Positions 5,592 to 27,222 of a DNA stretch of 32,000 nt are shown here, in pieces (the first letter of the stretch is position 1; every line of letters begins with the position of its first letter). Source of the stretch: Psychrobacter sp. DM4 (lineage in GTDB: Bacteria; Pseudomonadota; Gammaproteobacteria; Pseudomonadales; Moraxellaceae); assembly GCF_051307035.1 (NCBI RefSeq), contig NZ_CP195536.1, positions 90,001 through 122,000 of the forward strand, given 5' to 3'. The notes under the pieces are model-generated. The model was not told the DNA's origin and ran no database searches. It saw nothing but the letters and a program-made list of their open reading frames with translations. The position numbers and the translations under genes were made by a program.

Positions 5592-5625
5592 AAAGCGGTG
5601 TGGAATAGTTTCACGCCGTTTTTTT
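5592..5625 (+). terminator. Rho-independent terminator after rpsO
   Basis: cggtgtg (5596-5602) pairs with cacgccg (5612-5618) with one G.U pair. T7 follows at 5619-5625. Confidence 0.75.
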
Positions 5626-6046: not shown

Positions 6047-8170
6047 ATGACAATGTTTAATACAGTGAAGCGCGAATTTCAATATGGTAATCAGCAAGTC
6101 GTCATCGAGACAGGTCGCGTTGCCCGTCAAGCCAACTCGATTATGGTACATATGGGCGGCGTGACCGTACTGGTTGCCGCAGTCGTCAAGTCTGATCCAA
6201 AAGAGGGTCAAAACTTCTTCCCGCTAACCGTCAACTACCAAGAAAAAATGTACGCGGCAGGTAAGATCCCTGGTGCTTATGGCAAACGTGAAGGCCGCGC
6301 CAGTGAGTTTGAAACGCTAACCTCACGCTTGATTGACCGCCCAATCCGTCCATTATTCCCTGAAGGTTATGTGAACGAGATTCAGATTACGGCGACAGTT
6401 GTGTCATCAGACAAAACCCAATCTGCTGATATCGCAGCCCTCATCGGTGCGTCAGCAGCACTCGCAATCTCTGATGCGCCATTCAATGGCCCAGTCGCCG
6501 CAGCCCGTGTTGGTTTTATCGGTGGTGAATACGTCCTAAACCCAACGCTTGAGCAGCTCAAAGAAAGCGATCTTGATTTGGTCGTTGCTGGTACCAAATC
6601 TGCGGTATTAATGGTTGAATCTGAAGCCGCTGAGCTATCAGAAGATCAGATGCTAGGCGCAGTACTATACGGACATGAGCAACAGCAAATTGTCATCGAT
6701 AACATCGCTTCAATGGCAGAGGAAATCGGCACCGCTAAGCAGCAGTTTGAAACGCCAAAGGCAGACGCGTCGCTAGAGAGTAGCATGAAAGAGCAGTTCG
6801 GCGCGCAAGTCGCTAATGCTTATACCACTACAGACAAGCAAGAGCGCTATGCCAAGCTCGATGACGTTAAGCAAGCCGCTATCGATGCGCTAGCAGGCGA
6901 CAAAGAGTCAGAGGACTACAGCAGCAACGTCTCTAAGCTCAAGGACATCTACAATGATCTAAAATATCGTACCGTTCGTGACAACATCTTGTCAGGTAAG
7001 CCGCGTATCGATGGTCGTGATTTAGATACCGTTCGCGCCCTTGACGTGCAAGTTGGCGTATTACCATACACCCATGGTTCAGCGCTATTTACTCGCGGTG
7101 AGACGCAAGCTTTGGTCACGACGACGCTAGGTAACAGCCGTGATGTCAATATGATTGACTCACTAGGCGGCACTATCCGTGATCATTTCATGCTCCATTA
7201 TAACTTCCCGCATTTCTCAGTCGGTGAGACAGGTCGCGAGGGTATCCCAAAACGCCGCGAAATCGGTCATGGTCGCCTAGCTCGCCGCGGTGTGCAAGCG
7301 ATGCTGCCAGATAGCGACCGCTTCCCGTATGTCATCCGCGTGGTATCCGAGATTACTGAGTCAAACGGTTCGTCTTCTATGGCTTCTGTTTGCGGTGCAA
7401 GTTTGGCATTGATGGACGCAGGCGTACCCATCAAAGCCCCAGTCGCTGGTATTGCGATGGGTCTGGTCAAAGAAGGCGAGCGCTTTGCGGTACTATCAGA
7501 CATCCTAGGTGATGAAGATCATCTTGGCGATATGGACTTTAAAGTCGCGGGTTCTAAAGACGGTATCACTGCGCTACAGATGGATATCAAAATCGAAGGG
7601 ATTACCCCTGACATCATGGAGCAAGCGCTCAAGCAAGCTCATGCAGGCCGTATCCATATTTTAGATGCGATGAATAAAGTACTGCCTGAGAGCCGTACTG
7701 AAATCAACGCGCATGCGCCTAATTATGCTGTGATTGAGATCAATCCTGACAAAATCCGTGACGTCATCGGTAAAGGTGGTGCAATGATTCGTCAGCTAAC
7801 AGAAGAGACTGGCGCGGTTATCGATATCGATGATGGCGGTACTATTCGTATCTTTGGTGAAAACAAAGCGGCAACCAAAGCGGCTATCGGTAAAATCGAG
7901 GCGCTAACGGCTGAAGTTGAGGTCGGTAAAACTTACGAAGGTACGGTTGCTCGTATCGTTGACTTTGGCGCGTTCGTTAACGTCTTGCCAAACACGGATG
8001 GCCTAGTCCATATCTCGCAAATCGCAGAAGAGCGCGTCGAGAATGTCTCTGACTATCTAAAGGAAGGTCAAAAGGTCAATGTCTTCGTTCAAGACGTCGA
8101 CAACCGTGGTCGCATTAAGTTGACTATGAAAGGTATTGAGCAGAACGTAACGGCTGATACTGCTGAATAA
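6047..8170 (+). CDS. pnp: Polyribonucleotide nucleotidyltransferase (PNPase)
   Basis: Full-length architecture: two RNase PH domains, a KH domain ([20 protein letters not shown]) and an S1 domain ([33 protein letters not shown]). AGGAA SD lies 7 nt upstream. Confidence 0.97.
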
Positions 8171-8280: not shown

Positions 8281-8634
8281 GAATAGGAATGTAAGAAAAT
8301 AAATATAGTTTTTATTAGGTATGCTATGTGCACCACTGGATAAGTTATCGTGTTATATCGGTGCGCTGGGCGCACTCTACTTTTCTATAGCCTTACGTTA
8401 GTTAGACCATAGACCGCTTATAAATGTCATAGATTAAGGTAGAAATGAACAAATCCTGCAAATAACTTTATTCTGAAACCATAACGCTGAATTTTCCGCT
8501 ATTATTACTTGTCATCTATTAAGCGGAAACAAGCAAGTGGGGTATGTTCCGTGTTTTGTAAATCTAAATTATTAACCTGCAAAATATAAGCTATGGTCAC
8601 AACTCACTCTATCAAATATATTGGACAGTACACT

Positions 8635-9681
8635 ATGTACAACAAAAAAGTGAATATTAATAAGTGTCTAAACCCAATTTTATCTATATTGTCAGTTGCT
8701 GTACTTTCTACGCTGTCATCAATGGCAATCGCTCAAAGCACACCTAACCAGTCCTTTAACGTATCAAGCGTTACTAATAGCTCAAAAAAAAATATCTCAA
8801 GCTGTGACATCTATAATGAAATTGAACAGTCTGAAACACCCATTGATCTGAATAGTGTCACACAAACGCCAAATGGTATCGAAGTTCATTCTAATGACTT
8901 AGATATTCAAGTGGAAGACTTTCAACCATGCAAAGCCAGTAACCCATTCAGTAGTGACAAAGAAGCTATTGCGCTATATCAGCAACTTGAACACGATTTA
9001 GACAAAATAGCGGAGATAATTATTCGTGATGTACCAGAAGGCTTCTCTAAATATAAGGGTTTAGATAATGAAGAACTTGACCAAATAATTCAAAACGTAC
9101 AATTAGCAAAACAGCAAAAGCACAATCCAGAAAAGTTCGTAAACACATACATCTATATGGCGGTTTATAGTTATTTAGGCGAATTCGTACCTAAAGACGA
9201 TGCTAAAGCTGTGCAGTATATGAGCTATGTGGTTGACTACTATCAGTCTTTTAGCCCTAATGATGTATCGCCATTACTTAATTATATGGTTGCGGTAGCA
9301 ATTATGGAAAAGCAAAGACATATCAGTGATGACAATCCTATTAATTTACAGCATGAGACTGAGAGTAGTGTTGAAGCCGTGACTGCTTATTTGCTATCCA
9401 AAGCAGGGCACTTGGACACGAAGGCTATATTAGTAAAGAGTTACATCAATCGAATGAATAAAACGCTTGATGATTCCACAGTAGACAGGATTCACCAACT
9501 ATTTGACCCAAAACTTAGGGAGCTTGAACATCTTTCCGAGCAAGGAAGTTATGTTGCTACAAATGAATTGACAGAATTATATAAGGGGTTAAAGACCATT
9601 GATTTAGACTATGCAGAGCAAGCAAGACACTGGGGAGATCGAGTTGACACTTTGCTCCAGCCAGATACTAACTGGAATTAG
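8635..9681 (+). CDS. Secreted hypothetical protein (signal peptide; one possible degenerate Sel1-like repeat)
   Basis: Long ORF open from 8593. ATG 8635 gives MYNKKVNINKCLNPILSILSVAVLSTLSSMAIA|QS, a typical Sec signal with an AxA site. The segment YLGEFVPKDDAKAVQYM resembles a Sel1 repeat core. I recognise no family. Confidence 0.7.
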   Translation: MYNKKVNINKCLNPILSILSVAVLSTLSSMAIAQSTPNQSFNVSSVTNSSKKNISSCDIYNEIEQSETPIDLNSVTQTPNGIEVHSNDLDIQVEDFQPCKASNPFSSDKEAIALYQQLEHDLDKIAEIIIRDVPEGFSKYKGLDNEELDQIIQNVQLAKQQKHNPEKFVNTYIYMAVYSYLGEFVPKDDAKAVQYMSYVVDYYQSFSPNDVSPLLNYMVAVAIMEKQRHISDDNPINLQHETESSVEAVTAYLLSKAGHLDTKAILVKSYINRMNKTLDDSTVDRIHQLFDPKLRELEHLSEQGSYVATNELTELYKGLKTIDLDYAEQARHWGDRVDTLLQPDTNWN

Positions 9682-9938: not shown

Positions 9939-10869
9939 ATGATGCAACAAATTCTAGATGACATCGCCGCCCAAATGACAATCGAGACCGAGCGTGGAAA
10001 AGTAGCGGACTACATTCCGCAGCTGGCTCATGTCGATCCTAATCAATTTGGTATTGCCGTCGCGACTCCTGATGGGCAAGTCTATAGCGCAGGAGATGCC
10101 AGTACGCTGTTCTCCATACAAAGTATCTCTAAAGTATTTACGCTAACTATTGGTCTTAGCAAACTTGGCAGTACCCTGTGGAATCATGTCGGTCGTGAGC
10201 CCTCAGGCGACCCCTTTAACTCCATTACCATACTCGAGTATGAGTCGGGCAGGCCGCGTAATCCCTTTATCAATGCGGGCGCGATTGCGGTAGTCGATGC
10301 CATTACTATGGGACGCGAGCCAAAAGAGATATTGGATGAGATTATACAGTTTGTGCATTTTATAGCAGACGATGAGTCGATCTGCTTTGATTATAAAGTA
10401 GCAAGGTCTGAGATCGATCACGAGGATCGCAACGCCGCGCTCGCTCATTTTATGAAGTCTTTTGGTCATCTGCAACATGACGTCGATAAGATACTCAATA
10501 CTTACTTTCATCAATGCTCGATTGCCATTAGCTGTGAGCTGTGAGCAGTTAGCCCGTGCTGGTCTGTTTTTGGTCTCTAACGGTATCAATGAGCCCACAG
10601 GAGCAAAGGTGATCAGCCCGCAGCAATCTAAGCGGATTAATTCACTGATGATGATGTGTGGTCATTACGATGGCTCTGGCGAGTTTGCCTATCAGGTGGG
10701 TCTCCCAGGCAAAAGCGGCGTCGGTGGCGGCATTCTAACAATAGCACCGGGTAAGGGCGCAATCGCAGTATGGTCACCTGGCCTAAATCCAGTGGGTAAC
10801 TCAGAACTTGGCACAAAAGCATTAGAGCTACTGGTAGAAAAAACAGGATGGTCGGTATTTTCAAACTAA
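9939..10869 (+). pseudogene. glsA: Glutaminase A gene disrupted by a 7-bp tandem duplication (frameshift)
   Basis: Two overlapping ORFs (9939-10544 and 10462-10869) together cover a complete glutaminase (…FSIQSISKVFT… / …[12 protein letters not shown]…GKSGVGGGI…). At 10530-10546 the sequence reads agctgtg-agctgtg-agc. Deleting one 7-mer restores …[15 protein letters not shown]… and a 307-codon ORF. Confidence 0.85.
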
Positions 10870-11158: not shown

Positions 11159-11788
11159 TTATTCTTGATCTAACTTATCGATCATATCTTGATATTTCTC
11201 TTTTCTGCTAGCAATCTTACTACGCTCTTCTTCTACGTTAGCGATCAGCTTTTTGGCAACGTCTACGCTCTTATCAAAGGCGGCGAGTTCCATATCTACC
11301 ACAGCGATTAAGCGCTCTAAGGTCATGGCTGTGGCTTTTTCGGTGACCCCATTGGTCATGCCCATCGCTTCGGACATAAAGTCTTCTCTAAGCTTAGATG
11401 CCCATTGAAAGAGACCTGCCATTGACATATTAGGGTTGCTATCTTCGTCAGACTGCCCTTCTTTATCAGCGTCATTCTGTTCAGCGTCGTCTTTTTGCTC
11501 GGCTTTAGTTTCTTTGGCAGCAGACTTATTATTTTTACTAGATTTTTCTTCTTTATTAGTATCGTTAGCTTCGTTGGACTTATCATCTTTTTTAGCGGAT
11601 TGACCTTCTTTGGTAGCGCTATCTGCTTTCTTGTCATGAGCTTTGTCTTCTTGATAATGATGCTCGGCGTTATACTCCTCAAAATTGCCGTCTTCGGATA
11701 CTACGGTATCGTCTTTAACGACTTCTACGCCAGTAACCACTTTATTGTCGGCAGCTTTTTTTGAATCTTTGCCAGTGTTGTTTGACAT
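11159..11788 (-). CDS. Lys/Asp/Glu-rich low-complexity protein with a structured C-terminal ~90 aa (hypothetical)
   Basis: It is the longest ORF at this locus, with an AAGGA SD 9-13 nt upstream of the ATG and a terminator downstream. The N-terminal ~120 aa are K/D/E/N/S-rich. The C-terminus (…GLFQWASKLREDFMSEAMG…LIANVEEERSKIASRKEKYQDMIDKLDQE) looks helical. Confidence 0.7.
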   Translation of the reverse strand: MSNNTGKDSKKAADNKVVTGVEVVKDDTVVSEDGNFEEYNAEHHYQEDKAHDKKADSATKEGQSAKKDDKSNEANDTNKEEKSSKNNKSAAKETKAEQKDDAEQNDADKEGQSDEDSNPNMSMAGLFQWASKLREDFMSEAMGMTNGVTEKATAMTLERLIAVVDMELAAFDKSVDVAKKLIANVEEERSKIASRKEKYQDMIDKLDQE

Positions 11789-13109: not shown

Positions 13110-13691
13110 CTAAACAGTAATATGCTTTGGCACATGGATATCAATGCGTAGTTTAGGCAAACCTTGCAAGTGCTTTTTGATAAGCGGCAGCGTGACGTCA
13201 TGCCAGTCTAGAGGAAGGGGAGCTGCGGTATGCTCTCTTGCATGGTCTAAACTATCATGCTCTGCCTTATTAGAAGAATGTTCAAACAGTAGGGGGCGGG
13301 CGAGCATAGCAATTTTGCGTACGCCTTTGTAGCGTATAAGGGGCATAAGTTGTTTAGATAAGTCTGTGAGCGCTGCTGTCAACCAAGCGGTACGCGCTGG
13401 ATGATAAGGATGATCTGATATGACTAGATTAGCGATATAGCTTGGCTGATTGCTATGATTACTGATGCCAAGACCTGAGTGCTCACGTACGCGCTTGTGT
13501 ATCAAGCAGGTTCCAGTCTTTAAGCTGCCATCAATACAGGCTTTGCGATAGCGCTGGTAATTATCAGGATAAAGAATTTTGGTGCGGGCAAGGACAGGAT
13601 CTAATAACGTACCAGCAGTGTTCACGGGTAAAATAAGCAGCTGTACGCTGCTATTTAGGATAGGCGCATGCGTTAACTGTATGGTCGCCAT
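13110..13691 (-). CDS. Hypothetical protein, possibly macro-domain-like
   Basis: 193-aa ORF, last gene in the prlC-side string. The N-terminal pattern VQLLILPVNTAGTLLDPVLARTKILYPDNYQRYRKACIDGSLKTGTCL resembles the macro-domain layout (xxVN..G.....A..i...yP..y..Y). The functional call is weak. Confidence 0.5.
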   Translation of the reverse strand: MATIQLTHAPILNSSVQLLILPVNTAGTLLDPVLARTKILYPDNYQRYRKACIDGSLKTGTCLIHKRVREHSGLGISNHSNQPSYIANLVISDHPYHPARTAWLTAALTDLSKQLMPLIRYKGVRKIAMLARPLLFEHSSNKAEHDSLDHAREHTAAPLPLDWHDVTLPLIKKHLQGLPKLRIDIHVPKHITV

Positions 13692-13707
13692 ATTGCCTGC
13701 TCCAAGT

Positions 13708-14289
13708 TTATTCTATAATAGCTTTACGACGCTTTTGTGCCTCTAACTGAGCGATTTGTGCTTCTAGTAGCGCGATTTGTTCTGCTTTCATCTGGGTTAA
13801 TTGTTTTGTCATAGCGATTTGTTCCGCAGCCAGTCGCTCTTGTTCCGCAAAACGTTGCTTCTCATCGTTTAATCGGTCTATCTCTTCTTTGGCAAGACTG
13901 TCAGTTGCTGGTAGCGGTGCCTCTATGATTGTCTTAGGATTGGGGATATCGACCGTTTGAATACTGATACTGTCTTTATTATCTAAGGTGCTAGTAGCAG
14001 TATCGTCAAGATTATCAGTGCTATCGTTATTATCAATATCAATATCGCTAGCATCCGCTACTGGTATGATCGAAGCTGACTGAGCCATCTTACCTTGTTC
14101 TTCTACTGTCGATATGACGATAGTTGTTCCCTCATTATCTAGATCATCAGCGGTAGACTGTGACCAAAATAAGTAGGCCAAGATAATCAAGACAACTATT
14201 AGTGTGATAGCGATCCATAATAATGGAGCAGATCGGTGCTTGGGCTGTGCATATCGGTTAAAGGTAGGTCGCGGTTTCTTTGATTTCAT
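13708..14289 (-). CDS. Membrane-anchored protein with acidic linker and C-terminal coiled coil (hypothetical)
   Basis: Basic N-terminus, one TM helix (LLWIAITLIVVLIILAYLFW), a D/N/S/T-rich linker, and a heptad-like C-terminus (…AEQIALLEAQIAQLEAQKRRK). It lies 16 nt upstream of the next gene. Confidence 0.65.
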   Translation of the reverse strand: MKSKKPRPTFNRYAQPKHRSAPLLWIAITLIVVLIILAYLFWSQSTADDLDNEGTTIVISTVEEQGKMAQSASIIPVADASDIDIDNNDSTDNLDDTATSTLDNKDSISIQTVDIPNPKTIIEAPLPATDSLAKEEIDRLNDEKQRFAEQERLAAEQIAMTKQLTQMKAEQIALLEAQIAQLEAQKRRKAIIE

Positions 14290-14656: not shown

Positions 14657-16843
14657 TTATGCCTCCTGACCTATCGTTTGAGCATCCAATGCCTCGTTCT
14701 CAGAGAAGCCACTATGGCGCAGTAGCGCCTCTATGCTCGCGCTACGACCACGGAAATTCTCAAAATTGGTCTTGGCAGGAAAACTACCGCCAACGGACAA
14801 AATAGTGTCGCGAAACGCTTTGCCCGTAGCAGGATTAAAGATACCGTCCTCTTCAAACTTGCTAAAAGCGTCCGCTGATAATAGCTCAGCCCACTTATAA
14901 GAGTAGTAGCCTGCAGCGTAGCCACCTGCAAAGATATGACTAAAGCCATTGGCAAAACGGTTATACTCAGGCGTCTGGGTAATGGCTATATCGTGACGTA
15001 CTTCGTTGAGTGTCGCTAATATACCGTCATAATCTAACGCTGGCGTATGCGCATGAATCAGTAAGTCAAACAATGAGAGCTCAACCTGACGCAAGGTTTG
15101 CATACCGCTTTGGAAGTTTTTGGCCGCAAGCAGAGCATCTAGCTTATCTTTTGGCAAAGGCTCGCCTGTATCTACATGGCTACTAATCAGCGCAATACCT
15201 TCACTATCCCACGCCCAGTTCTCCATAAACTGACTCGGTAGCTCGACCGCATCCCACTCAACACCATTAACCCCTGCAACATCGCCAACACTCACTTGCG
15301 TCAATAGATGATGCAAACCATGACCAAACTCATGGAACAAGGTTAGTACTTCGTTATGAGTCAATAGGCTCGGCTTACCGCCTAACGCTGGGGTAAAGTT
15401 GCCTACCATAAAGCAAACTGGCAGCTGCTCGTAGCCTTGCTCATCATGACTGTAGCGGGACTGAAAACCACTCATCCAAGCGCCGCCACGTTTGCCACTG
15501 CGGGTAAATAAGTCAAAATAAAACCCGCCAACTACGTTTTTGTCATTATCGAATAATTGATAAAAACGCACATCATCATGCCAGCGTGACGCTGCACCCG
15601 TAGCACTAGTATCAATATCTTGCTCTTTCACCGTAATACCGTATAAACGCTCTACAATAGCAAACAGACCATCGATGACTTTTGGTAAAGGAAAATACGG
15701 ACGTATCTCTTCTTGCGACAGACTAAATTTGTCTTGTTTGAGCTTTTCTGCGATATACGCCGTGTCCCAAGGTTGCAGATCAGTAATGCCGTTAGCACTT
15801 GCACAAACTTGCAACTGCGCCAAATCTTGCTCGGCAGTAGGAGTTGCTTGCGCTGCTAAATTGCGCAAAAAGGTGTCAACCTCTGCCACGCTGTCTGCCA
15901 TCTTAGTCGATAGCGATACTTCAGCGTAATTGTTAAAGCCTAATAGCCCAGCCTTTTGCTGACGCAACTTGAGTATCTGACTCATGACCTCAGCGTTATT
16001 GAGCGAGTCACCTTTTTTATCCGTATGAGTATCAAACTCCGAGGCGCGAGTCACGTAAGCGCGGTATAGAGTGGCACGCAAATCACGGTCGTCGGCGTGC
16101 GTCATAATCGCTAAATACACAGGGATATTGAGCGTCGCGACATAATACGGCGTTGGTAGCGCATCACTGTCTTCTTGAGTCAGACGACCTGCCTCTAATT
16201 CATGCGCTTTAAACTGCTCGCCTGCGTCCGCGAGTAAGGAGAGTCCGCTATCGGTCAAGCCCGCTAGTTGCTCTGCGGTTAGCGGTAGGGCATACGCTTG
16301 GGTGGCGTCCAAAATATGATCTGAGAACATCGCTGATAGTGTTGATAGCTTGCTTTGAATAGCGGCAAACTTATCTTGATCCGCTTTGGGCAGCGCAACG
16401 CCCGAGAGCTCAAATCGACGCACGGCAAGCTCAATGGCTCGTCTGCGAGCAGGTTCTAATGTCTCAAAAAATGAGCGATCATCAACAATAGCCTGATAGC
16501 GGTCGAATAGGGGCTGATGCTGACCCACTCTTGTGCCATAGGCAGATAACTTAGGCAACAGCTCATGATGCACATGACGAATCTCATCATTACTCATGAC
16601 GCCGTTCAAGTGCGAGAGCACACCCCAGCTACGATCCAAGCTCAAATTGATATGATCAAACTCTAATACATCACGCAGAGCAATATCTGCACTTATAGGG
16701 GTAAAGTCCTTGTCCTGAAAACTTGTCAGCGTATCCAAAAAATCATTGGCTTGTGCTATAGCTAGGTTAACTTGCGTCTGCAAAGTCGTAGGAGAGGCAT
16801 CCAAAAAGTTGACAAGGTTTAATCTGGGATCTAAAGATGTCAT
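14657..16843 (-). CDS. prlC: Oligopeptidase A (M3 family zinc metallopeptidase)
   Basis: HEFGH zinc motif (LFHEFGHGLHHLLT), downstream GVEWDAVELPSQFMENW, and full-length M3A similarity. Confidence 0.95.
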   Translation of the reverse strand: MTSLDPRLNLVNFLDASPTTLQTQVNLAIAQANDFLDTLTSFQDKDFTPISADIALRDVLEFDHINLSLDRSWGVLSHLNGVMSNDEIRHVHHELLPKLSAYGTRVGQHQPLFDRYQAIVDDRSFFETLEPARRRAIELAVRRFELSGVALPKADQDKFAAIQSKLSTLSAMFSDHILDATQAYALPLTAEQLAGLTDSGLSLLADAGEQFKAHELEAGRLTQEDSDALPTPYYVATLNIPVYLAIMTHADDRDLRATLYRAYVTRASEFDTHTDKKGDSLNNAEVMSQILKLRQQKAGLLGFNNYAEVSLSTKMADSVAEVDTFLRNLAAQATPTAEQDLAQLQVCASANGITDLQPWDTAYIAEKLKQDKFSLSQEEIRPYFPLPKVIDGLFAIVERLYGITVKEQDIDTSATGAASRWHDDVRFYQLFDNDKNVVGGFYFDLFTRSGKRGGAWMSGFQSRYSHDEQGYEQLPVCFMVGNFTPALGGKPSLLTHNEVLTLFHEFGHGLHHLLTQVSVGDVAGVNGVEWDAVELPSQFMENWAWDSEGIALISSHVDTGEPLPKDKLDALLAAKNFQSGMQTLRQVELSLFDLLIHAHTPALDYDGILATLNEVRHDIAITQTPEYNRFANGFSHIFAGGYAAGYYSYKWAELLSADAFSKFEEDGIFNPATGKAFRDTILSVGGSFPAKTNFENFRGRSASIEALLRHSGFSENEALDAQTIGQEA

Positions 16844-17254
16844 AGCGGTATCCGTTGCATAATGTCGTTATTATGAGTATTTGTTAAAATAGTATGCATT
16901 AAAGATGGGTATGTTTTGATGAAAATACAAGCCACTCAACGTAAACCCTATATCATCTGGCAGTAATGATAGTGGCGACGAGTTTGACCCATTCAAGCGT
17001 ATTTTAATCACATCAGCTGAATAATGGACTCAGCTTATAAGGACTTAGTGACCTCATCGTTATATCGCTTACAAAGGGTCATCATTTGCTTGCAAAGTAA
17101 CCATATATCTGAGAAGACGGTCTGATAGTATCAAAGGTAGTACTAAATCTAGTGCTAAGAAAAGACACACTACTAAAAAGTACGAGCACAAGCCTATAGT
17201 AAATTGTGCCAACATTAAAAATCTATTAATGATAATAAAATAAGGAATATATTC

Positions 17255-18367
17255 ATGAAAGCAACATTGAAGAGTTTACGTGAGACAAAAGCTAATCCTG
17301 CTGTCAGTATCTTTGTAAAGACCCATCGTGAGCATCCTGCTAATGAAAAAGATCCTATCGCCCTCAAAAATCAATTAAAGGTCGCAGAAGAGCGTCTAAA
17401 TAAAGAGTACGATAAGAACACGGCAACCACTATTATAGATAGTATTCATGCCAAGACCGATGAGCTCAATCATAATTATAACTTAGATACTTTAGCCATC
17501 TTTGCAAGTGTCAATGATGTACAGATTATTCGCATGCCATTAGATACAACAGAGCGCGTCGTAATCTCAGACAGCTTTGCAACCCGTGATCTAGTACGTG
17601 ACATGGCAAGCGCGGTACATTTTTATACCGTCGTATTGACTCGTGATATGGCCCGTTTAATTGAAGCCTCTAACGATCGCGTCGTTGCCGAATTTGACAA
17701 AGACGATGACAAGCAAAACAATATGGAAAACATTGCCTTTCCAGTTGAGAATAATGGTTTATATACTACCAGCGACGGCGGATCAGATCGCTCATCGAAC
17801 AACGAAAGTAGCCATCTAAAAGAATTCTTTAACCAAGTGGATAAAAGCGTTCAAGAGCTGTGGGGTGAGCACAAGATGCCACTCGTTATCGTTGGTGACG
17901 CCAAAAACATCGGCTACTACAAAGAGGTTTGTGATCGTCCAGACAATATTATCGCGACAGTCTCAAATGTGACCAACCTTGATGATGGTAATGCACAGCA
18001 TATCGTCGATGGCGTACAAGACGCCGTAGAGGAATACCGTGCCTCATTACATGAAGCGGCTATGGGAGAGATTGATAAAGCGCGCGGTGCAGATATGTTA
18101 CGTACGGACTTGCAAGAAGTCTATCGTGGTGCTTTTCAAGGTGCTGGTGAGACGTTATATGTCCGTCGTGGTTATATAAAGCCTGCTAAGATTGACGAAA
18201 AAGCGCAAACACTAACCCTAGCAGATGACGCTGCTGGTGAAGGCGTTACAGATGACGCGATTGGCGTCATCATTGAGCATGTCATTCACAACGGTGGTGA
18301 TGTGGTCTTTATGCCAGAGGAAATCATGGGCGAAGATCAACCTATTGCTCTAGTGACTCGTTATTAG
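17255..18367 (+). CDS. Bacterial aeRF1/Pelota-like protein (baeRF / Balon-type candidate ribosome hibernation factor)
   Basis: 370-aa ORF with AAGGA SD (17242-17246) and a strong terminator. The N-terminal baeRF-like pattern is LKSLRETKANPAVSIFVKTHREHP…IALKNQLKVAEERL. The domain-2-like strand is FYTVVLTRDMARLIEASND, and SDGGSDRS sits where eRF1 has GGQ. The domain-3 motif is GAGETLYV (cf. GAVETLLV) and the C-terminus is GGDVVFMPEE…PIALVTRY* (cf. GG.V..vs…GIAAILRY). Confidence 0.7.
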   Translation: MKATLKSLRETKANPAVSIFVKTHREHPANEKDPIALKNQLKVAEERLNKEYDKNTATTIIDSIHAKTDELNHNYNLDTLAIFASVNDVQIIRMPLDTTERVVISDSFATRDLVRDMASAVHFYTVVLTRDMARLIEASNDRVVAEFDKDDDKQNNMENIAFPVENNGLYTTSDGGSDRSSNNESSHLKEFFNQVDKSVQELWGEHKMPLVIVGDAKNIGYYKEVCDRPDNIIATVSNVTNLDDGNAQHIVDGVQDAVEEYRASLHEAAMGEIDKARGADMLRTDLQEVYRGAFQGAGETLYVRRGYIKPAKIDEKAQTLTLADDAAGEGVTDDAIGVIIEHVIHNGGDVVFMPEEIMGEDQPIALVTRY

Positions 18368-18429
18368 TCAGTAGTCTGGGTTAATTCAAAATAGTATTTG
18401 AATGAACTGAGCCTTATAAAAGCAAGATT

Positions 18430-18467
18430 AAAGAGCATTGGTTCATTATGAGTCAATGCTCTTTTTA
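18430..18467 (+). terminator. Rho-independent terminator after the aeRF1-like gene
   Basis: agagcattg (18432-18440) pairs with caatgctct (18454-18462), a perfect 9-bp stem. TTTTT follows. Confidence 0.8.
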
Positions 18468-18499
18468 GTTGATACCTATTGAATATTACCAAAGTTAGG

Positions 18500-19336
18500 A
18501 TGCACATTATGCTCATTCCAAACAATGACGTCGGTCATTTAGTCAAAAGTACGCAAGCCTTTGTCTCATTAGCGCTACGCGGTGGACGTGGGGTTATGGG
18601 TACAGGACAACCTATGCAACCTAAAAAGATGCTTGTTCTTTATGAGCATGAAGCCTGTCCTTACTCGCGCCGCGTACGTGAAGTCATGACCCGCCTAAAT
18701 TTAGATTACGAGAGTCGTCCTAGTCCGCACAAAGGTCACGTTTATCGTGATGAGCTAGAAGAGCTGACTGGCAAAACGCAAGTGCCCTTTATGATCGATG
18801 AGAACTTCGCTGAAGGGGAGGAGGGCCATCAAATATTGGACTCACAAGCCATCATCGATCATCTGTTCACACATTATTCTAAAAAAGGCTCAACGCCCCC
18901 TAAGTTTCAACGTGAGCATAAAAAAGACAATGCTTCGATAGTCAATAAAGCGGCTAGCATGGCCTCTATGATGCGCGGTGTGAGGGCAGTCCATCCTAAA
19001 AAGAATGAGGCGCGCGGCAAACCTGATGAGCCATTGCATCTATACGGATTTGAGGCTAGTCCCTTTTGCCGGCTAGTACGTGAGCGCTTAAGTGAATTAG
19101 AAGTCGGTTACATCAACCACAACGTCGCTCGTGAGCAGATAAAAGATATCGGTGCTTTTGGTTTTCACTTGACGCTAGGTGAGTATCAGCCTATCAAAGG
19201 CGGCAAACGTGATCAGCTTATGAATGGCGAGTTAAACGGTAAGCTGCTATTTCCTTATCTAGTCGATCCCAACACAGGGGCGCAGATGTACGAGTCGCAG
19301 GACATCATCAGTTATCTTAATGATATTTATGGCTAG
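18500..19336 (+). CDS. Tandem glutaredoxin-like / GST N-terminal (thioredoxin-fold) domain protein
   Basis: It has two Grx/GST-N-like modules. The first is MLVLYEHEACPYSRRVREVM…GKTQVPFMIDEN…ILDSQAIIDHL. The second is LHLYGFEASPFCRLVRERL…FPYLVDPNTGAQMYESQDIISYL. The ORF is open from TTG 18479; ATG 18500 is used here, but the start is uncertain. Confidence 0.8.
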   Translation: MHIMLIPNNDVGHLVKSTQAFVSLALRGGRGVMGTGQPMQPKKMLVLYEHEACPYSRRVREVMTRLNLDYESRPSPHKGHVYRDELEELTGKTQVPFMIDENFAEGEEGHQILDSQAIIDHLFTHYSKKGSTPPKFQREHKKDNASIVNKAASMASMMRGVRAVHPKKNEARGKPDEPLHLYGFEASPFCRLVRERLSELEVGYINHNVAREQIKDIGAFGFHLTLGEYQPIKGGKRDQLMNGELNGKLLFPYLVDPNTGAQMYESQDIISYLNDIYG

Positions 19337-21717: not shown

Positions 21718-24700
21718 ATGTTCAAAAAAGTATTAATCGCTAATCGTGGTGCCATTACTTGTCGCGTGATACGCACGTTGAAGCAGATGAACATCCTCTC
21801 TGTCGCGGTCTACACTGATGCGGATCGCGGCTCATTGCATGTCAGTGAAGCTGATGAAGCGATAAAAATAGGCTCAGGATCTGCCAGCGAGAGTTATCTC
21901 AATATCGATAAAGTCATACAGGCGGCACTAGAGTCAGGCGCTGAAGCTATTCATCCGGGTTATGGATTTTTATCAGAGAACGCTGAATTCTGTGCGCGTT
22001 GTACCGAGGCGGGCATTGCGTTTATGGGGCCAACGCCTGAGCAACTATTGAGCTTTGGCCTCAAACACACCGCGCGCGAGCTGGCAACGCAAAGCCAAGT
22101 GCCCCTGTTACCAGGTAGCGATCTATTACAGGATATAAACGAAGCGGTAAGCGAAGCTGAGCGTATCGGCTATCCCGTCATGCTCAAGAGCACCGCTGGC
22201 GGCGGCGGTATTGGCATGCGCTTGGTTGCCAATGAGATAGAGCTCATCGAGGCCTATGAAGCCGTTCATCATTTAGCACAAAATAACTTTAGTAATGCCG
22301 GACTCTATCTTGAGAAGTTTGTAGAAAACGCGCGGCATATCGAAGTCCAAGTATTCGGTGATGGTCACGGCAATATTATCACTTTAGGAGAGCGCGACTG
22401 TTCAATTCAACGCCGCAATCAAAAGGTCGTAGAAGAGACGCCTGCGCCGCTTTTATCTGATAGTCAAAGACAGCAGTTACAACAAGTATCTACTGCCCTA
22501 ATGCAACAAGTGAATTACCGCTCTGCTGGCACGGTAGAGTTTGTGATGGATGTCGCAACCCAGAACTTTTACTTTTTGGAGGTTAATACACGCCTGCAAG
22601 TGGAGCACGGCATCACCGAAGAGATTTATCAAGTTGATATCGTGCGCTGGATGATTGAGCTGGCGGCAGGTGAGTTTGTAGCGCCAACATTACCGCTAAA
22701 GCCTTCAGGACATTCTATTGAAGTGCGTCTATACGCTGAGGATCCAATAAAGAATTTTCAACCGAGTACGGGTTTATTCACTGACGTCTATTTTGATCCA
22801 GAGGCACGAGTCGAGACTTGGATAGAGACCGGTAGCAACATCTCCGCTTTTTATGATCCGATGATCGCCAAAATCATAGTGACGGCTCCTGATCGCGAGC
22901 AAGCACTGGCTAAGATGACTCAGACACTCGCGGTATCTCGTATAGCGGGCATCGAGACAAATTTAGAGTATTTACAGCAGATATTTACATCGCCTGTGTT
23001 CATCAAGGGCGAGCAAACGACAAAGCTGTTAAATAGCTTTAGCTGGTTAAGTCAAAAAATTGAAGTACTAGTATCAGGGGTACAGACAGCGGTTCAAGAT
23101 GTGGTAGGTCGCCAAGGATATTGGAATGTTGGGGTACCGCCATCAGGTGCTATTGATGCGTTAAGTCTCAATACTGCTAATCAGCTCTTGGGCAATGAGT
23201 TCAATAGCGCAGGTCTAGAATGTGTGGTCACTGGACCGACGCTACGCTTTCATTGCGACAGCCAGATTGCGATCACTGGTGGCGCGATGGTCTGCACTTT
23301 GGATGAGCAAGTTATTCCCATGTGGCAAAGCGTGACCGTGAAAAAAGGTCAAGTCTTAGAATGTGGCAACATCACCTCAGGCTGTCGAAGCTATATCGGT
23401 ATCAAAGGCGGTATGGTCATTCCTGAATATTTAGGGAGCCAAGCGACGTTTAGCTTAGGTAAGTTTGGCGGGCACGGTGGTAGAAACCTCATCGTTGGTG
23501 ACATGCTACCCATTCAACAATTCGCAGTAGAGACTAACACTCAAATCGTCACCCAACACTCAATTCAGTGCTTAGCTGATAAGCAAAGACCTGAATTTAA
23601 TGGCCTATGGCAGATAGCGGTCATCTATGGGCCACATGGCGCACCAGACTTTTTTACGGAGTCCGATGTAGCACAATTCTTTGAACACCAGTGGGACGTC
23701 CATCATAACTCTAGCCGTACAGGTATTCGTCTCGTTGGCCCCAAACCTGAGTGGGCACGCGAAGATGGCGGTGAGGCGGGTCTGCACCCCTCAAACATTC
23801 ATGACAATGCTTATGCGGTCGGCGCTATCGACTTCACAGGGGATATGCCTATTATTTTAGGCCCTGATGGCCCAAGTCTAGGCGGGTTTGTGTGTTTAAG
23901 CGTTATCGTTGCTAGCGAGCGCTGGAAGATGGGTCAGCTCAAAGCTGGTGATAAAGTACAGTTTGTTCCGATTAGCTCTGAGCAAGCCAATAACTTGCAC
24001 CAGCGCTACGAGACGATGCTCAAAGCTGACGATACTCAATTAGTAGATTACGCTCTGCCTATGACGGTTGAGCCCGCCACTTTATCGACCGCGATTCTCG
24101 ATTCAATATCTAGCAGCGCTGAGCTGGCTGATGACTGCCCAAAAGTGGTCTATCGTCCTGCTGGTGATTGCTACCTGTTGATCGAATACGGCGCGCAAAT
24201 ACTTGATTTGCAATTGCGTTTTCGCGTTCAGGCGCTGATGGAGTACCTGCAAGCTCAACAGATCGCCGCCTTTGTAGATTTGACCCCGGGCATTCGCTCC
24301 CTGCTTGTGCATTATCGTCCTCTAGAGCTTTCGAAAACTGAGCTGTTAGCTATTCTCAAGCGAGCTGAGCATGAGTTACCTGACATCAAAAACATGCAAG
24401 TACCTTCTAGAATTGTACATCTACCGATGGCTTGGGCCGACTCACAAACTGCGCTGGCAACTGAGAAGTATCAGCAGTTAGTGCGACCTGATGCGCCTTG
24501 GTGCCCTGACAATATTGAATTTATCAGACGCACTAATGGACTTAAGTCAGCACAAGCGGTCAAGGATATCGTCTATCAGGCCAGCTACTTAGTTATGGGT
24601 TTAGGTGATGTCTATTTAGGCGCCCCTGTCGCCACGCCACTTGACCCTAGACACCGATTGGTCACTACCAAATACAATCCTGCTCGAACGTGGACGCCAG

Positions 24701-25368
24701 AGAACGCTGTTGGTATCGGTGGTGCTTATCTGTGTGTCTATGGTATGGAAGGGCCCGGTGGCTATCAGTTCGTCGGTAGAACGATTCAGATATGGAATCG
24801 TTATCGCCCGCATCCAAGCTTTGAGCCTGATAAGCCTTGGCTGCTTAGATTCTTTGACCAGATCCGCTTTTATGAAGTCAGTGAAGATGAGCTGTTATCG
24901 ATGCGTGACTCATTCGAGGCGGGCGAATTAGCAGTTAAGATTGAAGATAGTGTGCTTAATTTAGCTGAATACTATCAGATGCTCAATGACAATAAGCAAG
25001 ATATTCAAAGCTTTAAACAGCAGCAGCAAACGAGCTTTGAGGCTGAGCGTCAACGCTGGCAGCAGCAGGGACTAGACAGCTATATCAATGACGAGATAAC
25101 AGTAGCTGAGGTGGAATCAGATATCGTGATTCCTGAAGGCGGCATGGTGGTGCAAGCACACATGATGGGCAGTATTTGGAAGATTAACTGCGCGGTAGGC
25201 GATGTGGTTAGTAAAGGACAAGTACTCGCTATCGTTGAAGCTATGAAAATTGAGCTCCCTATACTCTCGCCAGTAAATATGACGGTGGTCAGCATTGAGA
25301 CCGAAGTCGGTATGACGGTCAAAACCGAGCAGCCATTATTTGTACTAGCGCCAACAGCGGCTGAGTAA
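21718..25368 (+). CDS. Biotin-dependent urea carboxylase family enzyme, probably guanidine carboxylase
   Basis: The 1216-aa protein has an N-terminal biotin carboxylase/ATP-grasp domain (KVLIANRGAITCRVIRT, MLKSTAGGGGIGMRL, EVNTRLQVEH). Central allophanate-hydrolase-subunit-like (KipA/KipI-type) carboxyltransferase domains follow. The C-terminal biotinyl domain has the EAMKIE motif (Lys codon 25246-25248). Confidence 0.93.
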   Translation: MFKKVLIANRGAITCRVIRTLKQMNILSVAVYTDADRGSLHVSEADEAIKIGSGSASESYLNIDKVIQAALESGAEAIHPGYGFLSENAEFCARCTEAGIAFMGPTPEQLLSFGLKHTARELATQSQVPLLPGSDLLQDINEAVSEAERIGYPVMLKSTAGGGGIGMRLVANEIELIEAYEAVHHLAQNNFSNAGLYLEKFVENARHIEVQVFGDGHGNIITLGERDCSIQRRNQKVVEETPAPLLSDSQRQQLQQVSTALMQQVNYRSAGTVEFVMDVATQNFYFLEVNTRLQVEHGITEEIYQVDIVRWMIELAAGEFVAPTLPLKPSGHSIEVRLYAEDPIKNFQPSTGLFTDVYFDPEARVETWIETGSNISAFYDPMIAKIIVTAPDREQALAKMTQTLAVSRIAGIETNLEYLQQIFTSPVFIKGEQTTKLLNSFSWLSQKIEVLVSGVQTAVQDVVGRQGYWNVGVPPSGAIDALSLNTANQLLGNEFNSAGLECVVTGPTLRFHCDSQIAITGGAMVCTLDEQVIPMWQSVTVKKGQVLECGNITSGCRSYIGIKGGMVIPEYLGSQATFSLGKFGGHGGRNLIVGDMLPIQQFAVETNTQIVTQHSIQCLADKQRPEFNGLWQIAVIYGPHGAPDFFTESDVAQFFEHQWDVHHNSSRTGIRLVGPKPEWAREDGGEAGLHPSNIHDNAYAVGAIDFTGDMPIILGPDGPSLGGFVCLSVIVASERWKMGQLKAGDKVQFVPISSEQANNLHQRYETMLKADDTQLVDYALPMTVEPATLSTAILDSISSSAELADDCPKVVYRPAGDCYLLIEYGAQILDLQLRFRVQALMEYLQAQQIAAFVDLTPGIRSLLVHYRPLELSKTELLAILKRAEHELPDIKNMQVPSRIVHLPMAWADSQTALATEKYQQLVRPDAPWCPDNIEFIRRTNGLKSAQAVKDIVYQASYLVMGLGDVYLGAPVATPLDPRHRLVTTKYNPARTWTPENAVGIGGAYLCVYGMEGPGGYQFVGRTIQIWNRYRPHPSFEPDKPWLLRFFDQIRFYEVSEDELLSMRDSFEAGELAVKIEDSVLNLAEYYQMLNDNKQDIQSFKQQQQTSFEAERQRWQQQGLDSYINDEITVAEVESDIVIPEGGMVVQAHMMGSIWKINCAVGDVVSKGQVLAIVEAMKIELPILSPVNMTVVSIETEVGMTVKTEQPLFVLAPTAAE

Positions 25369-25410: not shown

Positions 25411-27222
25411 ATGCAAACGAATTGGACTATAGATGACTGGCAGCAAGCGTATGATCGAGGCGATTGTCAGTTGACTGATCTCATAGATTATGTCGCTCAG
25501 ATAAACAACGACAATAATGCTTGGATAGCGATAGCGACCGAGCAGCAACTTCATGAGCAAATTAAAGTTATCAGCGCTCAAAAGTCAGCTGATTTACCGC
25601 TATACGGTATTCCTTTTGGCGTCAAAGACAATATCGATGTCGCTGGATTTGATACCACAGCCGCTTGTCCCGCTAGTCTTTATGTCGCCGAAAAAGACGC
25701 TTATGTGGTCGCAAAGCTCAAAGCTGCCGGCGCAATCGTCATTGGTAAGACTAATCTTGATCAATTTGCCACGGGACTCGTCGGCACACGCTCGCCACAT
25801 GGGGCGGTCAGCAATAGCTTTGATGCTAAATACATCAGTGGTGGTTCAAGCTCAGGATCAGCGATCAGTGTAGCCAATGGCGTCGTGCCTTTTGCATTAG
25901 GGACAGATACCGCAGGTTCCGGGCGCGTTCCCGCTGGGCACAACAACATCGTTGGTCTTAAACCTACTAAGGGGTGGCTGTCAACAACAGGTCTGATTCC
26001 GGCTTGTCAGCTTCATGATGTCATTTCTATCTTTGCGCTTACTATCAAAGAGGCGTGGCAGGTCGCTAGCATTATGCAAGGTTATGATGAGCAAGACAGC
26101 TATAGTCGAACTCATCCCAAAACAGCGCCAGTCGCTTTTAGTTTGGGCAGAGTTGCTATTCCTAATAGCCTAGAGTTTTATGGTGATAATCATTCCACGC
26201 AAGCCTTTGAGCAAGCTATTGAACGCTTAGAGAAATTAGGTTATGACGTCTGTCCTATCGATTTTGACGTGTTTGATGAGTTAGCAGATGCACTTTATAA
26301 CGACAGCTGGGTCAGTGAACGCGCTTTTGCTATCGATAATCGAGTTAACCGCGATGCGCTGTTACCTATTACTCGTCAAATTATTAGCCAAGCAGACAAC
26401 TATAGCGCTGTAGATGCGATGGCAGCGGAGTACTCCAGAGCTAAGCTGAGTCGCCGCATCGATCAGATAATGACTCAGTTTGATGCGCTTATGGTACCGA
26501 CCGCGCCAACGATTTATACCATTGAAGAGTTAGAGGCCGATCCGCTGAGCAAAAACAGCCACATGGGCGCTTATACCAATTTTGTCAATTTGGCAGACTT
26601 ATCAGCGTTAGCGCTACCCAATGTAATAGCTGAAGACGGACTACCGCGTGGCGTTACTTTTATTGCCAAGGCTTGGCACGATGAAGCGCTAGCTAACTTT
26701 GGCCACCGGTGGCAGTTAGCGCTCGATATTCCACTAGGCACTTCTAATCAATCCTATCAATCTATAAGTAGTACCGAATCATCGGCGCTTATACCTTTAC
26801 AAGACACCCCGAACATAAATAGCAGCATCAAGTTAGCGGTAGTTGGCGCGCACTTGAGCGGTATGCCGCTTAACTATCAGCTAACCGATAGGGGCGGCGT
26901 ATTAGCACAAAAAACACAAACCGCAGACGGCTATAAGCTCTTTGCTTTATCGGGCTCAACACCTGCCAAACCCGGATTACAGTGTCATATTGAGGGCAGC
27001 GCTATCGAAGTCGAAGTTTGGCATATTCCAACCGCAAGATTTGGTGAGATTGTCAACGAAGTACCTGCGCCTTTAGGCATCGGTAACGTCGAGCTGAGTG
27101 ATGGCAGCTGGGTTAACAGCTTTATTTGCGAAGGGTATGTCTTTGAACCAGAGTTTAATGGCGGCACTGACATTACTGAATTTGGCGGCTGGCGCGCTTA
27201 TATCGCTACGCTAAATTCGTAA
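25411..27222 (+). CDS. Allophanate hydrolase (amidase-signature family)
   Basis: Amidase signature GGSSSGSAISVANG…GTDTAGSGRVPA, plus the extra C-terminal allophanate-hydrolase domain (…VGAHLSGMPLNYQL…), 603 aa in total. Confidence 0.92.
   Translation: MQTNWTIDDWQQAYDRGDCQLTDLIDYVAQINNDNNAWIAIATEQQLHEQIKVISAQKSADLPLYGIPFGVKDNIDVAGFDTTAACPASLYVAEKDAYVVAKLKAAGAIVIGKTNLDQFATGLVGTRSPHGAVSNSFDAKYISGGSSSGSAISVANGVVPFALGTDTAGSGRVPAGHNNIVGLKPTKGWLSTTGLIPACQLHDVISIFALTIKEAWQVASIMQGYDEQDSYSRTHPKTAPVAFSLGRVAIPNSLEFYGDNHSTQAFEQAIERLEKLGYDVCPIDFDVFDELADALYNDSWVSERAFAIDNRVNRDALLPITRQIISQADNYSAVDAMAAEYSRAKLSRRIDQIMTQFDALMVPTAPTIYTIEELEADPLSKNSHMGAYTNFVNLADLSALALPNVIAEDGLPRGVTFIAKAWHDEALANFGHRWQLALDIPLGTSNQSYQSISSTESSALIPLQDTPNINSSIKLAVVGAHLSGMPLNYQLTDRGGVLAQKTQTADGYKLFALSGSTPAKPGLQCHIEGSAIEVEVWHIPTARFGEIVNEVPAPLGIGNVELSDGSWVNSFICEGYVFEPEFNGGTDITEFGGWRAYIATLNS

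Follow-up and report, generated by a model that had tools for sequence, protein, structure and literature searches.

The locus examined here raises the question of what a stand-alone gene for a protein resembling archaeo-eukaryotic release factors (aeRF1) and Pelota does in a bacterium, Psychrobacter sp. DM4. Within the 32,000-nucleotide stretch of DNA that was analyzed (the window), a sequence-only reading had singled out an open reading frame at 17255..18367 (+) as encoding a candidate ribosome hibernation factor of the baeRF/Balon type. The frame starts with ATG, stops with TAG and codes for 370 amino acids; it is a real gene, and the purifying selection acting on it is strong, with a dN/dS of ~0.02-0.03 against four orthologs in a comparison in which synonymous sites were almost saturated. 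All peptides and coordinates quoted earlier were reproduced exactly, namely FYTVVLTRDMARLIEASND (residues 123-141), SDGGSDRS (residues 173-180) and GAGETLYV (nt 18140-18163), together with GGDVVFMPEE and, at the C-terminus, PIALVTRY. Equally, the remark that NIKS and GGQ are lacking holds for the whole protein, in which neither string was present. A Shine-Dalgarno sequence AAGGA, read from the sequence, is located at 17242..17246 (+), 8 nt before the ATG, and this block is kept among the orthologous loci.

Identity of the DM4 Protein

The 370-amino-acid protein is, with little room for doubt, the Balon ortholog of Psychrobacter sp. DM4, and its gene encodes a Balon-family ribosome hibernation factor according to reading frame, family profile, PDB match and dN/dS. 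The best sequence match in the PDB was chain B of 8RD8, 8RDV and 8RDW, which was aligned over the full length at ~82% identity (for 8RD8_B, E 3.3e-202 and a global identity of 303/370 residues). These entries are the published cryo-EM structures of Balon on the ribosome, Balon being AOC03_06830 of P. urativorans (PMC10901736), of which the DM4 gene is the positional ortholog. Moreover, the NCBIfam equivalog NF052287, titled "AOC03_06830 family ribosome hibernation factor", was matched with 514.7 bits, above its cut-off of 330, and residues 5-370 were aligned onto profile positions 1-361 of 361. Pfam PF18845 (baeRF_family3) was matched with an E-value of 1.7e-30 and 107 bits as compared to a gathering threshold of 31.5, with residues 122-296 covering profile positions 1-167 of 168. 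The length of 370 amino acids falls inside the range of 360-420 amino acids given for the Balon family in a preprint, and the absence of NIKS and GGQ is listed as a trait of this family (PMC10901736).

The profile searches and the fold comparison that the sequence-only reading had suggested thus place the protein among baeRF/Balon-type aeRF1/Pelota-like proteins, as had been expected, through baeRF_family3, NF052287 and Balon in the PDB; Pfam eRF1_1, eRF1_2 and eRF1_3 gave zero matches at E <= 1, and the Pelota family was also unmatched in the Pfam search. The protein is not a new factor but an ortholog, 82% identical, of the founding member of the family. The Balon family has been described before, has cryo-EM structures and is recognized by name in current annotation models: its prediction, as the baeRF-1 clade, dates from 2019 and its structural and genetic characterization from 2024, and it is now an NCBIfam equivalog. 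Accordingly, the earlier statement that standard pipelines would call the protein hypothetical is out of date, since NF052287 and PF18845 name it. Older database records of Balon copies read hypothetical or, wrongly, methyl-accepting chemotaxis protein; many copies already bear the Balon family name. It can be noted as a matter of calibration that the raw sequence alone sufficed to recognize an aeRF1-like fold that is highly divergent, and to read it correctly as non-catalytic.

Fold, Domains, and the Middle-Domain Loop

Foldseek analysis of the predicted model ranked Balon first (chain B of 8RDW, 8RDV, and 8RD8, E ~1e-49), followed by the mycobacterial homologs Msmeg1130/Rv2629 (E 1e-14 to 5e-9), aRF1/eRF1 (E 1e-14 to 1e-8) and, below Balon and aRF1/eRF1, Pelota/Dom34 (E 6e-8 to 8e-5). 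The model itself is of moderate quality (pLDDT 69, pTM 0.56), with predicted disorder in the loops that are critical for function.

The N-terminal domain (residues 1-121, 17255..17617, +) is mixed alpha/beta in the model and shares 101 of 120 residues with 8RD8_B over residues 1-120; in Balon this domain binds the decoding centre (PMC10901736). His27-Pro28 (17333..17338, +), found in the context THREHPAN, probably corresponds to the 'HP motif' of the Balon paper, a mapping that we infer since the paper gives no residue numbers. Both residues are invariant in 81/81 Psychrobacter orthologs, and the surrounding region matches type Balon in 14 of 16 residues, THREHPAN being identical. Family-wide, conservation extends to P28 (98/109), T23 and D33 (93 each) as well as H24 and R25 (86 each).

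The middle domain (residues 122-296, 17618..18142, +) is the region covered by baeRF_family3 and has an RNase H fold like that of aeRF1 domain 2. Its topology in the model is in accordance with eRF1 domain 2: strands 124-128, 133-137 and 142-147 are followed by a long loop, helix 179-203 and strand 210-214. The loop (residues 148-182, 17696..17800, +) takes the position of the GGQ loop of aeRF1 and probably carries the lasso loop and/or the bL27 trap of Balon; 26 of its 35 residues match type Balon, and it was modelled at a pLDDT below 50. Inside it lies the tripeptide GGS (residues 175-177, 17777..17785, +), which had been read as a replaced GGQ. This claim stands as far as the loop is concerned, which, as in eRF1, connects the third middle-domain strand to the long helix, but is unsupported at the level of residues. 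Within Psychrobacter, GGS is well kept (G 70/81, G 80/81, S 78/81), whereas it is not conserved family-wide, the column of G175 being a gap in 70/109 sequences of the family-wide alignment. A Psychrobacter-only profile reached Balon alone in the PDB and yielded no alignment to human eRF1, and the sole residue-level alignment to human eRF1 that was obtained, at a non-significant E-value of 0.11, placed GGQ 3-5 residues N-terminal of GGS. GGS is a genus-specific feature and probably not a degenerate GGQ; a residue-by-residue correspondence of the two could not be demonstrated. For work on Balon, the conserved loop residues across the family are F162 (106/109 members) and P163 (107/109 members).

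The C-terminal domain (residues 297-370, 18143..18364, +) resembles domain 3 of Pelota/eRF1 and matches 8RD8_B in 57 of 74 residues; in Balon it binds EF-Tu (PMC10901736). Across the family, G296, G348, F352, and R369 are conserved to 90% or more, and Foldseek additionally matched isolated C-terminal domains of eRF1/Pelota and L30e. In the baeRF-1 clade, the Pelota domain was reported to contain an insert of two strands (PMC6514570), and a beta-hairpin insertion in the C-terminal domain is described in the Balon literature. The modelled strands 311-314 and 319-322 (18185..18220, +) presumably represent this hairpin, which is predicted to form the interface to EF-Tu·GDP; residues 305-325 match type Balon in 15 of 21 positions.

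Genomic Context and Transcriptional Signals

The gene prlC (oligopeptidase A), located at 14657-16843 on the - strand, is divergent to the Balon gene, and this arrangement was found in 80/80 Psychrobacter genomes, including that of P. urativorans; the closest genome is that of Psychrobacter sp. DM8 (94%). The upstream region, described earlier as private and ~410 bp long, measures 411 bp (16844-17254), but it is shared with prlC. The raiA gene, whose co-occurrence with Balon has been reported, was not found among the ORFs scanned in the 32-kb window. Four window ORFs, at 8593-9681, 11159-11788, 13110-13691, and 13708-14289, had no significant Pfam or NCBIfam match; a DarG-macrodomain-like match, below threshold, was the single exception to their lack of family hits.

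The layout of the Balon gene is that of a stand-alone transcription unit, and in this respect the sequence-only reading, which had called it monocistronic with a strong terminator, agrees with the data. Downstream, an intrinsic-terminator-like hairpin (18430..18466, +) consists of a 16-bp stem with a 3-nt loop running into TTTTT; the perfect hairpin spans 18430-18464 before the T5 run, the z-score of the region is -3.3, and all 80/80 orthologous loci have a downstream hairpin with a T-run and a dG <= -15 kcal/mol. The hairpin is A+T-rich and long-stemmed and was recovered by folding and conservation, whereas a scan of 16700-18700 for the simple G+C-rich consensus terminator came back empty. 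The sole Rfam match in 16700-18600 at E <= 1, Plastid-psbJ-3, scored 28 bits over the terminator region as compared to a gathering score of 61.7 and was regarded as a chance match.

Upstream, the core motif TCATTTGCTTGCAAA (17082..17096, +), in which the inverted repeat TTTGC-N2-GCAAA is contained, is conserved in the genus: with up to 2 mismatches it was present in 80/80 loci, 146-383 nt 5' of the Balon ATG. This motif is a candidate regulator binding site. It is followed at a fixed distance by TGATAGTAT (17123..17131, +), an extended -10-like element (TGnTAnnnT), the offset being 27 nt in 77 loci, and 26 nt both in one other locus and in the window; in the -10-like hexamer, positions A2 and T6 are conserved to 95% or more. 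Metagenome contigs were scanned for exact copies of the bipartite element, a search that would miss degenerate sites; of the 29 matches, 27 are in prlC-Balon intergenic regions and 2 are unrelated chance matches. The element occurs upstream of Balon in all 80 Psychrobacter genomes and, by this exact scan, essentially nowhere else.

The element was not assigned to a class of promoter. A sigma-70 scan did not call TGATAGTAT because a -35 match was missing, and by eye the sole -35-like hexamer, TTGCAA, is separated from the -10-like one by 30 nt. Likewise by eye, a sigma-54 promoter was rejected as other species do not conserve the GG of the would-be -24 box, and a sigma-32 promoter as CTTGCAA is too near the CCCTAyAG block. 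Rfam analysis of 16700-18600 at E <= 1 detected no riboswitch or thermosensor family in the 5' region, and folding of the putative leader (17138-17275) was not more stable than that of shuffled sequence (z = -0.9); an RNA thermometer is therefore unsupported. We tentatively propose, giving it somewhat less than even weight, that core motif and TGnTAnnnT together form a dedicated stress-responsive promoter and regulator site that times the production of Balon. If so, the element would be the transcriptional switch for Balon-type hibernation. This Balon-specific, rigidly spaced element is possibly the only new item at the locus, as no earlier description of it was found; together with the terminator, it delimits the stand-alone Psychrobacter Balon unit.

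Proposed Function and Alternative Explanations

The non-catalytic, A-site-occupying hibernation role proposed for the protein gains support through orthology, since its ortholog is the Balon of the ribosome-complex structures. Ribosome binding, EF-Tu interaction, and stress timing in DM4 are ascribed here on the basis of the ortholog literature: occupancy of the A site in cold shock and stationary phase comes from experiments on the ortholog of P. urativorans and on the homologs of mycobacteria, and mechanism and phenotype of Balon are described in the same work (PMC10901736). A non-catalytic A-site role of the baeRF-1 clade had been predicted earlier (PMC6514570). Following this, the DM4 protein would be a three-domain, aeRF1-like factor without release activity. 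The HP motif of its N-terminal domain would contact the decoding centre at A1492 of the 16S rRNA and A1913 of the 23S rRNA, leaving the mRNA untouched, while the lasso loop would encircle A2602 and a second loop would hold bL27 by its N-terminal tail. The catalytic site would remain inert and any nascent chain unreleased, and the C-terminal domain would bind EF-Tu in its GDP form. Such a protein could bind vacant ribosomes alongside RaiA as well as ribosomes with mRNA and peptidyl-tRNA. A knockout of Balon in P. arcticus showed a mild phenotype and unchanged rRNA stability (PMC10901736), so that the way in which Balon binds is better established than its benefit to the cell.

The sequence holds nothing that contradicts the assignment to Balon, and the alternatives have to be weighed against it. 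A non-catalytic rescue or splitting factor of the Pelota/Dom34 kind, which would recycle stalled ribosomes and not preserve dormant ones, is very unlikely. It would be in line with the similarity to the Pelota/Dom34 fold seen by Foldseek, with the Dom34-like relief of stalled ribosomes that Burroughs and Aravind considered for the baeRF-1 clade (PMC6514570) and with the finding of Balon also on ribosomes carrying mRNA and peptidyl-tRNA (PMC10901736). However, the ortholog keeps a distance of ~10 A to the mRNA channel, does not have loop A of Pelota, shares vacant ribosomes with RaiA and was found on nearly all stationary-phase ribosomes (PMC10901736). Moreover, aRF1/eRF1 outscored Pelota in the fold search. 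To our knowledge, bacteria possess no ABCE1-like splitting partner, which likewise counts against rescue.

Even less probable is an active peptidyl-tRNA hydrolase acting as alternative release or catalytic rescue factor. The superfamily fold is that of aeRF1, the genus-invariant Gln154 lies inside the long middle-domain loop, and a few baeRF-1 families that keep the catalytic glutamine were suggested to be active (PMC6514570). In the DM4 protein, by contrast, no glutamine occurs in a GGQ or GxuQ context, and across the family the loop shows poor conservation and differs in length, which is the pattern reported for inactive baeRF-1 families (PMC6514570). The molecule name of 8RD8_B and several UniRef/NCBI records say 'methyl-accepting chemotaxis protein', and the probability of this or another unrelated identity is close to nil: the fold is aeRF1-like, and the Pfam and NCBIfam searches left the MCP signalling, HAMP, and transmembrane families unmatched. 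With zero MCP domains, the MCP identity is refuted, and the label goes back to an old misannotation of AOC03_06830, the protein renamed Balon in 2024 (PMC10901736).

Comparison With Known Systems

The Balon assignment is in accordance with a comparison to the P. urativorans protein, which has 369 amino acids as compared to 370 in DM4 and shares the three-domain fold, THREHPAN and PIALVTRY. The loop sequence is nearly identical (LYTTSDGGSDRS in DM4, LYTTGDGGSDRS in P. urativorans Balon), and the gene occupies the same position, adjoined by divergent prlC and followed by a GST-N/glutaredoxin-like gene. As expected for another species, conservative substitutions are scattered along the protein, and a one-residue insertion is present in the hairpin region of the C-terminal domain (LADDAAGEG in DM4 as compared to MAD-AAADG); no functional difference is apparent. 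Msmeg1130/Rv2629 (PDB 8V9J, 8V9K, 8V9L) show the same fold at a TM-score of ~0.5-0.57 and ~13% identity, beyond the reach of the Psychrobacter sequence profile. They too are A-site binders without NIKS and GGQ, and their genes are located in hypoxia or drug-resistance operons (PMC10901736), whereas the DM4 gene stands alone.

With aRF1/eRF1 (PDB 4AF1, 1DT9), Balon has the three-domain architecture and A-site binding in common, and the DM4 protein additionally shares the C-terminal ..RY motif; its domain-3 motif GAGETLYV was paired with GAVEILIV of eRF1 by a non-significant hhalign run. Unlike aRF1/eRF1, the DM4 protein lacks NIKS and GGQ and possesses a longer, non-catalytic loop, and Balon pairs with the GDP form of EF-Tu instead of eRF3/aEF1-alpha in the GTP form and does not release the peptide (PMC10901736). 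The DM4 protein, with neither motif and with Pfam eRF1_1/2/3 unmatched, is not a classical aeRF1. Nor is it a member of Pelota/Dom34 (PDB 3WXM, 2VGN), which was not its best match: the aeRF1-superfamily fold and the role of an inactive A-site binder without GGQ are shared, but the structural match is weaker than that to aRF1/eRF1, and loop A of Pelota enters the empty mRNA channel, whereas Balon has no loop A and binds independently of mRNA (PMC10901736). RaiA/HPF/RMF belong to the same category as Balon in that they occupy active sites on idle ribosomes under stress, with folds and binding sites unrelated to those of Balon. On the small subunit, RaiA occupies the mRNA/tRNA sites, and its co-binding with Balon is possible (PMC10901736).

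Identity and predicted fold of the protein

The ATG-initiated ORF at 17255-18367 (+), preceded by the Shine-Dalgarno sequence AAGGA 8 nt 5' of the start codon, encodes a protein of 370 aa, and re-reading recovered all peptides named in the sequence-only reading exactly at their positions: FYTVVLTRDMARLIEASND (aa 123-141), SDGGSDRS (aa 173-180, GGS at nt 17777-17785) and GAGETLYV (nt 18140-18163), as well as GGDVVFMPEE and the C-terminal PIALVTRY. NIKS was absent from the protein as reported, and so was GGQ. The G+C content of the gene was 43.8%, that of the window 44.5% and that of the upstream region 34.5%. Purifying selection on the gene is strong, with dN/dS of about 0.02-0.03 at near saturation of synonymous sites.

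The aeRF1/Pelota-like, Balon-type interpretation was supported by library searches, fold ranking, motifs and synteny. The profile searches proposed for the baeRF and Balon families were positive for both: Pfam PF18845 (baeRF_family3) matched aa 122-296 (E 1.7e-30, 107 bits at a cut-off of 31.5), with weaker matches of sister baeRF families, and the NCBIfam full-length equivalog NF052287 ("AOC03_06830 family ribosome hibernation factor") scored 514.7 bits at a cut-off of 330. No match to eRF1_1/2/3 was found in the Pfam search of the protein at E ≤ 1. Among all PDB sequences, chain B of 8RD8/8RDV/8RDW was the only significant match, end-to-end with E 3.3e-202 and a global identity of 303/370 (82%). 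Thus, three independent libraries gave one concordant answer. AOC03_06830, renamed Balon, was described as the A-site protein in ribosomes of ice-treated P. urativorans, and 8RD8, 8RDV and 8RDW are Balon-ribosome complexes (Nature 2024, PMC10901736). The label methyl-accepting chemotaxis protein, carried by the PDB molecule, was rejected as a legacy misannotation; Pfam and NCBIfam detected no MCP domain. The Balon-family identity is already known: many database copies are named "AOC03_06830 family ribosome hibernation factor" or "baeRF3 domain-containing protein", hence the expectation that pipelines would call the protein hypothetical is outdated.

The AlphaFold2 model built from 34 orthologs was clearly three-domain despite its moderate quality (pLDDT 69, pTM 0.56). 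Foldseek comparison of this model with the PDB ranked Balon (8RDW/8RDV/8RD8) first with E about 1e-49, followed by M. smegmatis Msmeg1130 (E 1e-14), archaeal aRF1 (E 2e-14), eukaryotic eRF1 (E 1e-11 to 1e-8), Rv2629 (E 5e-9) and Pelota/Dom34 (E 6e-8 to 8e-5). For the predicted model this is the ranking expected of a Balon-family protein, and it confirmed the proposed three-domain aeRF1/Pelota layout.

Putative HP motif and the loop in the GGQ position

His27-Pro28 was invariant in 81 Psychrobacter sequences, and its context THREHPAN is unchanged in type Balon. In a family-wide alignment of 109 members, selected from 3,252 representatives with E ≤ 1e-3, the conserved N-domain positions were P28 (98/109), T23, H24, R25 and D33. 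The long loop at aa 148-182 (nt 17696-17800), which connects the third middle-domain strand to the long helix 179-203 and is disordered in the predicted model, corresponds in topology to the place of GGQ in eRF1 (...FTVDLPKKHGRGGQSALRF...; the eRF1 sequence used was verified to be identical to 1DT9_A). The claim that GGS replaces GGQ was therefore right as to the loop. However, GGS is well conserved only at the genus level, within Psychrobacter: family-wide, the G175 column was a gap in 70/109 sequences and the other two columns had no consensus. Moreover, the profile alignment to human eRF1, although collinear over 270 columns, was not significant (E 0.11) and aligned GGQ with Y170-T172, a few residues N-terminal to GGS, so that a residue-for-residue GGQ remnant is not demonstrable. 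The same alignment, weak as a whole, paired QGAGETLYV with eRF1 MGAVEILIV, which agrees with the suggested domain-3 signature. By contrast with GGS, Q154, M157, F162 and P163, invariant in the 34-sequence Psychrobacter alignment, are the better candidates for contacts under functional constraint, be it in the lasso loop or in the bL27 trap; F162-P163 was nearly invariant family-wide (106-107/109).

Genomic position and transcription unit

Scanning one genome per prokaryotic species yielded 80 orthologous loci, all from Psychrobacter, with identities of 82-94%; the closest was that of sp. DM8 (94%), and P. urativorans CCUG 4982 showed 86%. The M3 oligopeptidase gene (prlC-like, 14657-16843, -) lies divergently upstream in 80/80 loci, whereas the downstream GST-N/glutaredoxin-like gene (18479-19336, +) was present in only 10, P. 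urativorans included; the downstream flank is thus variable and the prlC flank fixed. Since P. urativorans shares both neighbours, the gene is the positional ortholog of type Balon, and its product is the ortholog of the family's founding member from a sister species at the matching genomic position. Balon was more conserved than prlC, e.g., 86% versus 78% against P. urativorans. The GST-N/glutaredoxin-like gene was noted in the window and in the orthologous loci L001, L063 and L072. In the window, the TTG listed as its start lies directly against the Balon terminator, and translation therefore probably begins at one of the ATGs a few codons later.

The description as monocistronic holds, with a divergent upstream gene, a downstream neighbour differing among species and a hairpin after the stop codon. 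The proposed terminator was found as a 16-bp hairpin running into TTTTT (18430-18464); a simple consensus scan did not call it, and an equivalent hairpin (dG ≤ -15 kcal/mol) was present in 80/80 loci. The upstream region, given as about 410 bp and private, indeed measures 411 bp but is common to the divergent prlC-like gene.

Conserved upstream element

A bipartite element spans 17066-17131 and comprises the core motif TCATTTGCTTGCAAA (17082-17096), which contains the inverted repeat TTTGC-N2-GCAAA, a spacing of 26-27 nt and an extended -10-like TGnTAnnnT (TGATAGTAT, 17123-17131). The core was found 5' of the Balon ATG in 80/80 Psychrobacter loci; its offset to TGnTAnnnT was 27 nt in 77 loci and 26 nt in L001 and in the window, while the distance from the core to the ATG varied between 146 and 383 nt. 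Exact matching against metagenome contigs returned 29 instances, 27 of them prlC-Balon intergenic and two unrelated chance matches. No Rfam family matched the upstream region, folding of the leader gave nothing unusual, and no sigma-factor class was assignable to the element, which is probably a Balon-specific promoter with a regulator site. A second conserved intergenic block, AAAGATGGGTATG (16896-16912), near the prlC start and just upstream of a minus-strand promoter-like site (TTAACA-17-CATTAT, 16887-16859), presumably belongs to prlC regulation.

Other features of the window

The left part holds a conserved translation/RNA-processing cluster (infB, rbfA, truB, a DJ-1/PfpI gene and pnp; 105-8170, +); between 4437 and 6047 (1.6 kb), no ORF reaches 110 aa. 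A glutaminase gene at 9939-10869 (+) is broken by a frameshift into two ORFs that overlap but differ in frame, covering positions 1-181 (9939-10544) and 175-286 (10462-10869) of the 286 of Pfam Glutaminase; the gene is a pseudogene, or else the sequence contains an error. The ORFs 8593-9681 (+, 362 aa) and 11159-11788 (-, 209 aa) had no significant Pfam or NCBIfam family. Adjoining prlC, two tandem 193-aa ORFs (13110-14289, -) belong to no Pfam family and are not similar to each other; the first gave a sub-threshold match to the DarG antitoxin N-terminal macrodomain (E 1.5e-9, 37.6 bits at a cut-off of 250). A Guanidine-I riboswitch (RF00442, 19882-20007, +; 73.7 bits at a gathering score of 63) precedes UAAP1/UAAP2 (DUF1989) genes, a urea carboxylase-type gene (21718-25368) and allophanate hydrolase (25411-27222), the known association of this riboswitch with guanidine/urea carboxylase operons. 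The TTG at 19937, assigned mechanically as the ORF start, falls in the aptamer region, and similarity to the protein family sets in only at aa 78; translation thus probably begins farther downstream.

Proposed mode of action and comparison with known systems

By analogy to what is described for its ortholog Balon, the protein of Psychrobacter sp. DM4 would bind the A site of vacant as well as mRNA- and peptidyl-tRNA-bearing ribosomes in cold shock and stationary phase. Its HP motif would touch A1492 and A1913 while the protein keeps about 10 Å from the mRNA channel, a distance that would make co-binding of RaiA possible. A lasso loop would surround A2602 and the protein would also trap the N-terminal tail of bL27, leaving the catalytic centre inert, and the C-domain hairpin would associate with EF-Tu in its GDP conformation. 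Mycobacterial Balon homologs inhibited in vitro translation, and deletion in P. arcticus slowed recovery after a three-month stationary phase with rRNA stability unchanged (PMC10901736). Glutamine-less baeRF-1 proteins were predicted to be non-catalytic A-site binders and linked to hibernation factors (Burroughs and Aravind, 2019, PMC6514570). As compared to catalytic aeRF1, the Psychrobacter protein lacks GGQ, NIKS and the eRF1 Pfam domains, and it likewise lacks the defining features of Pelota, whereas each of the Balon-family hallmarks that sequence and model could test is present in it.
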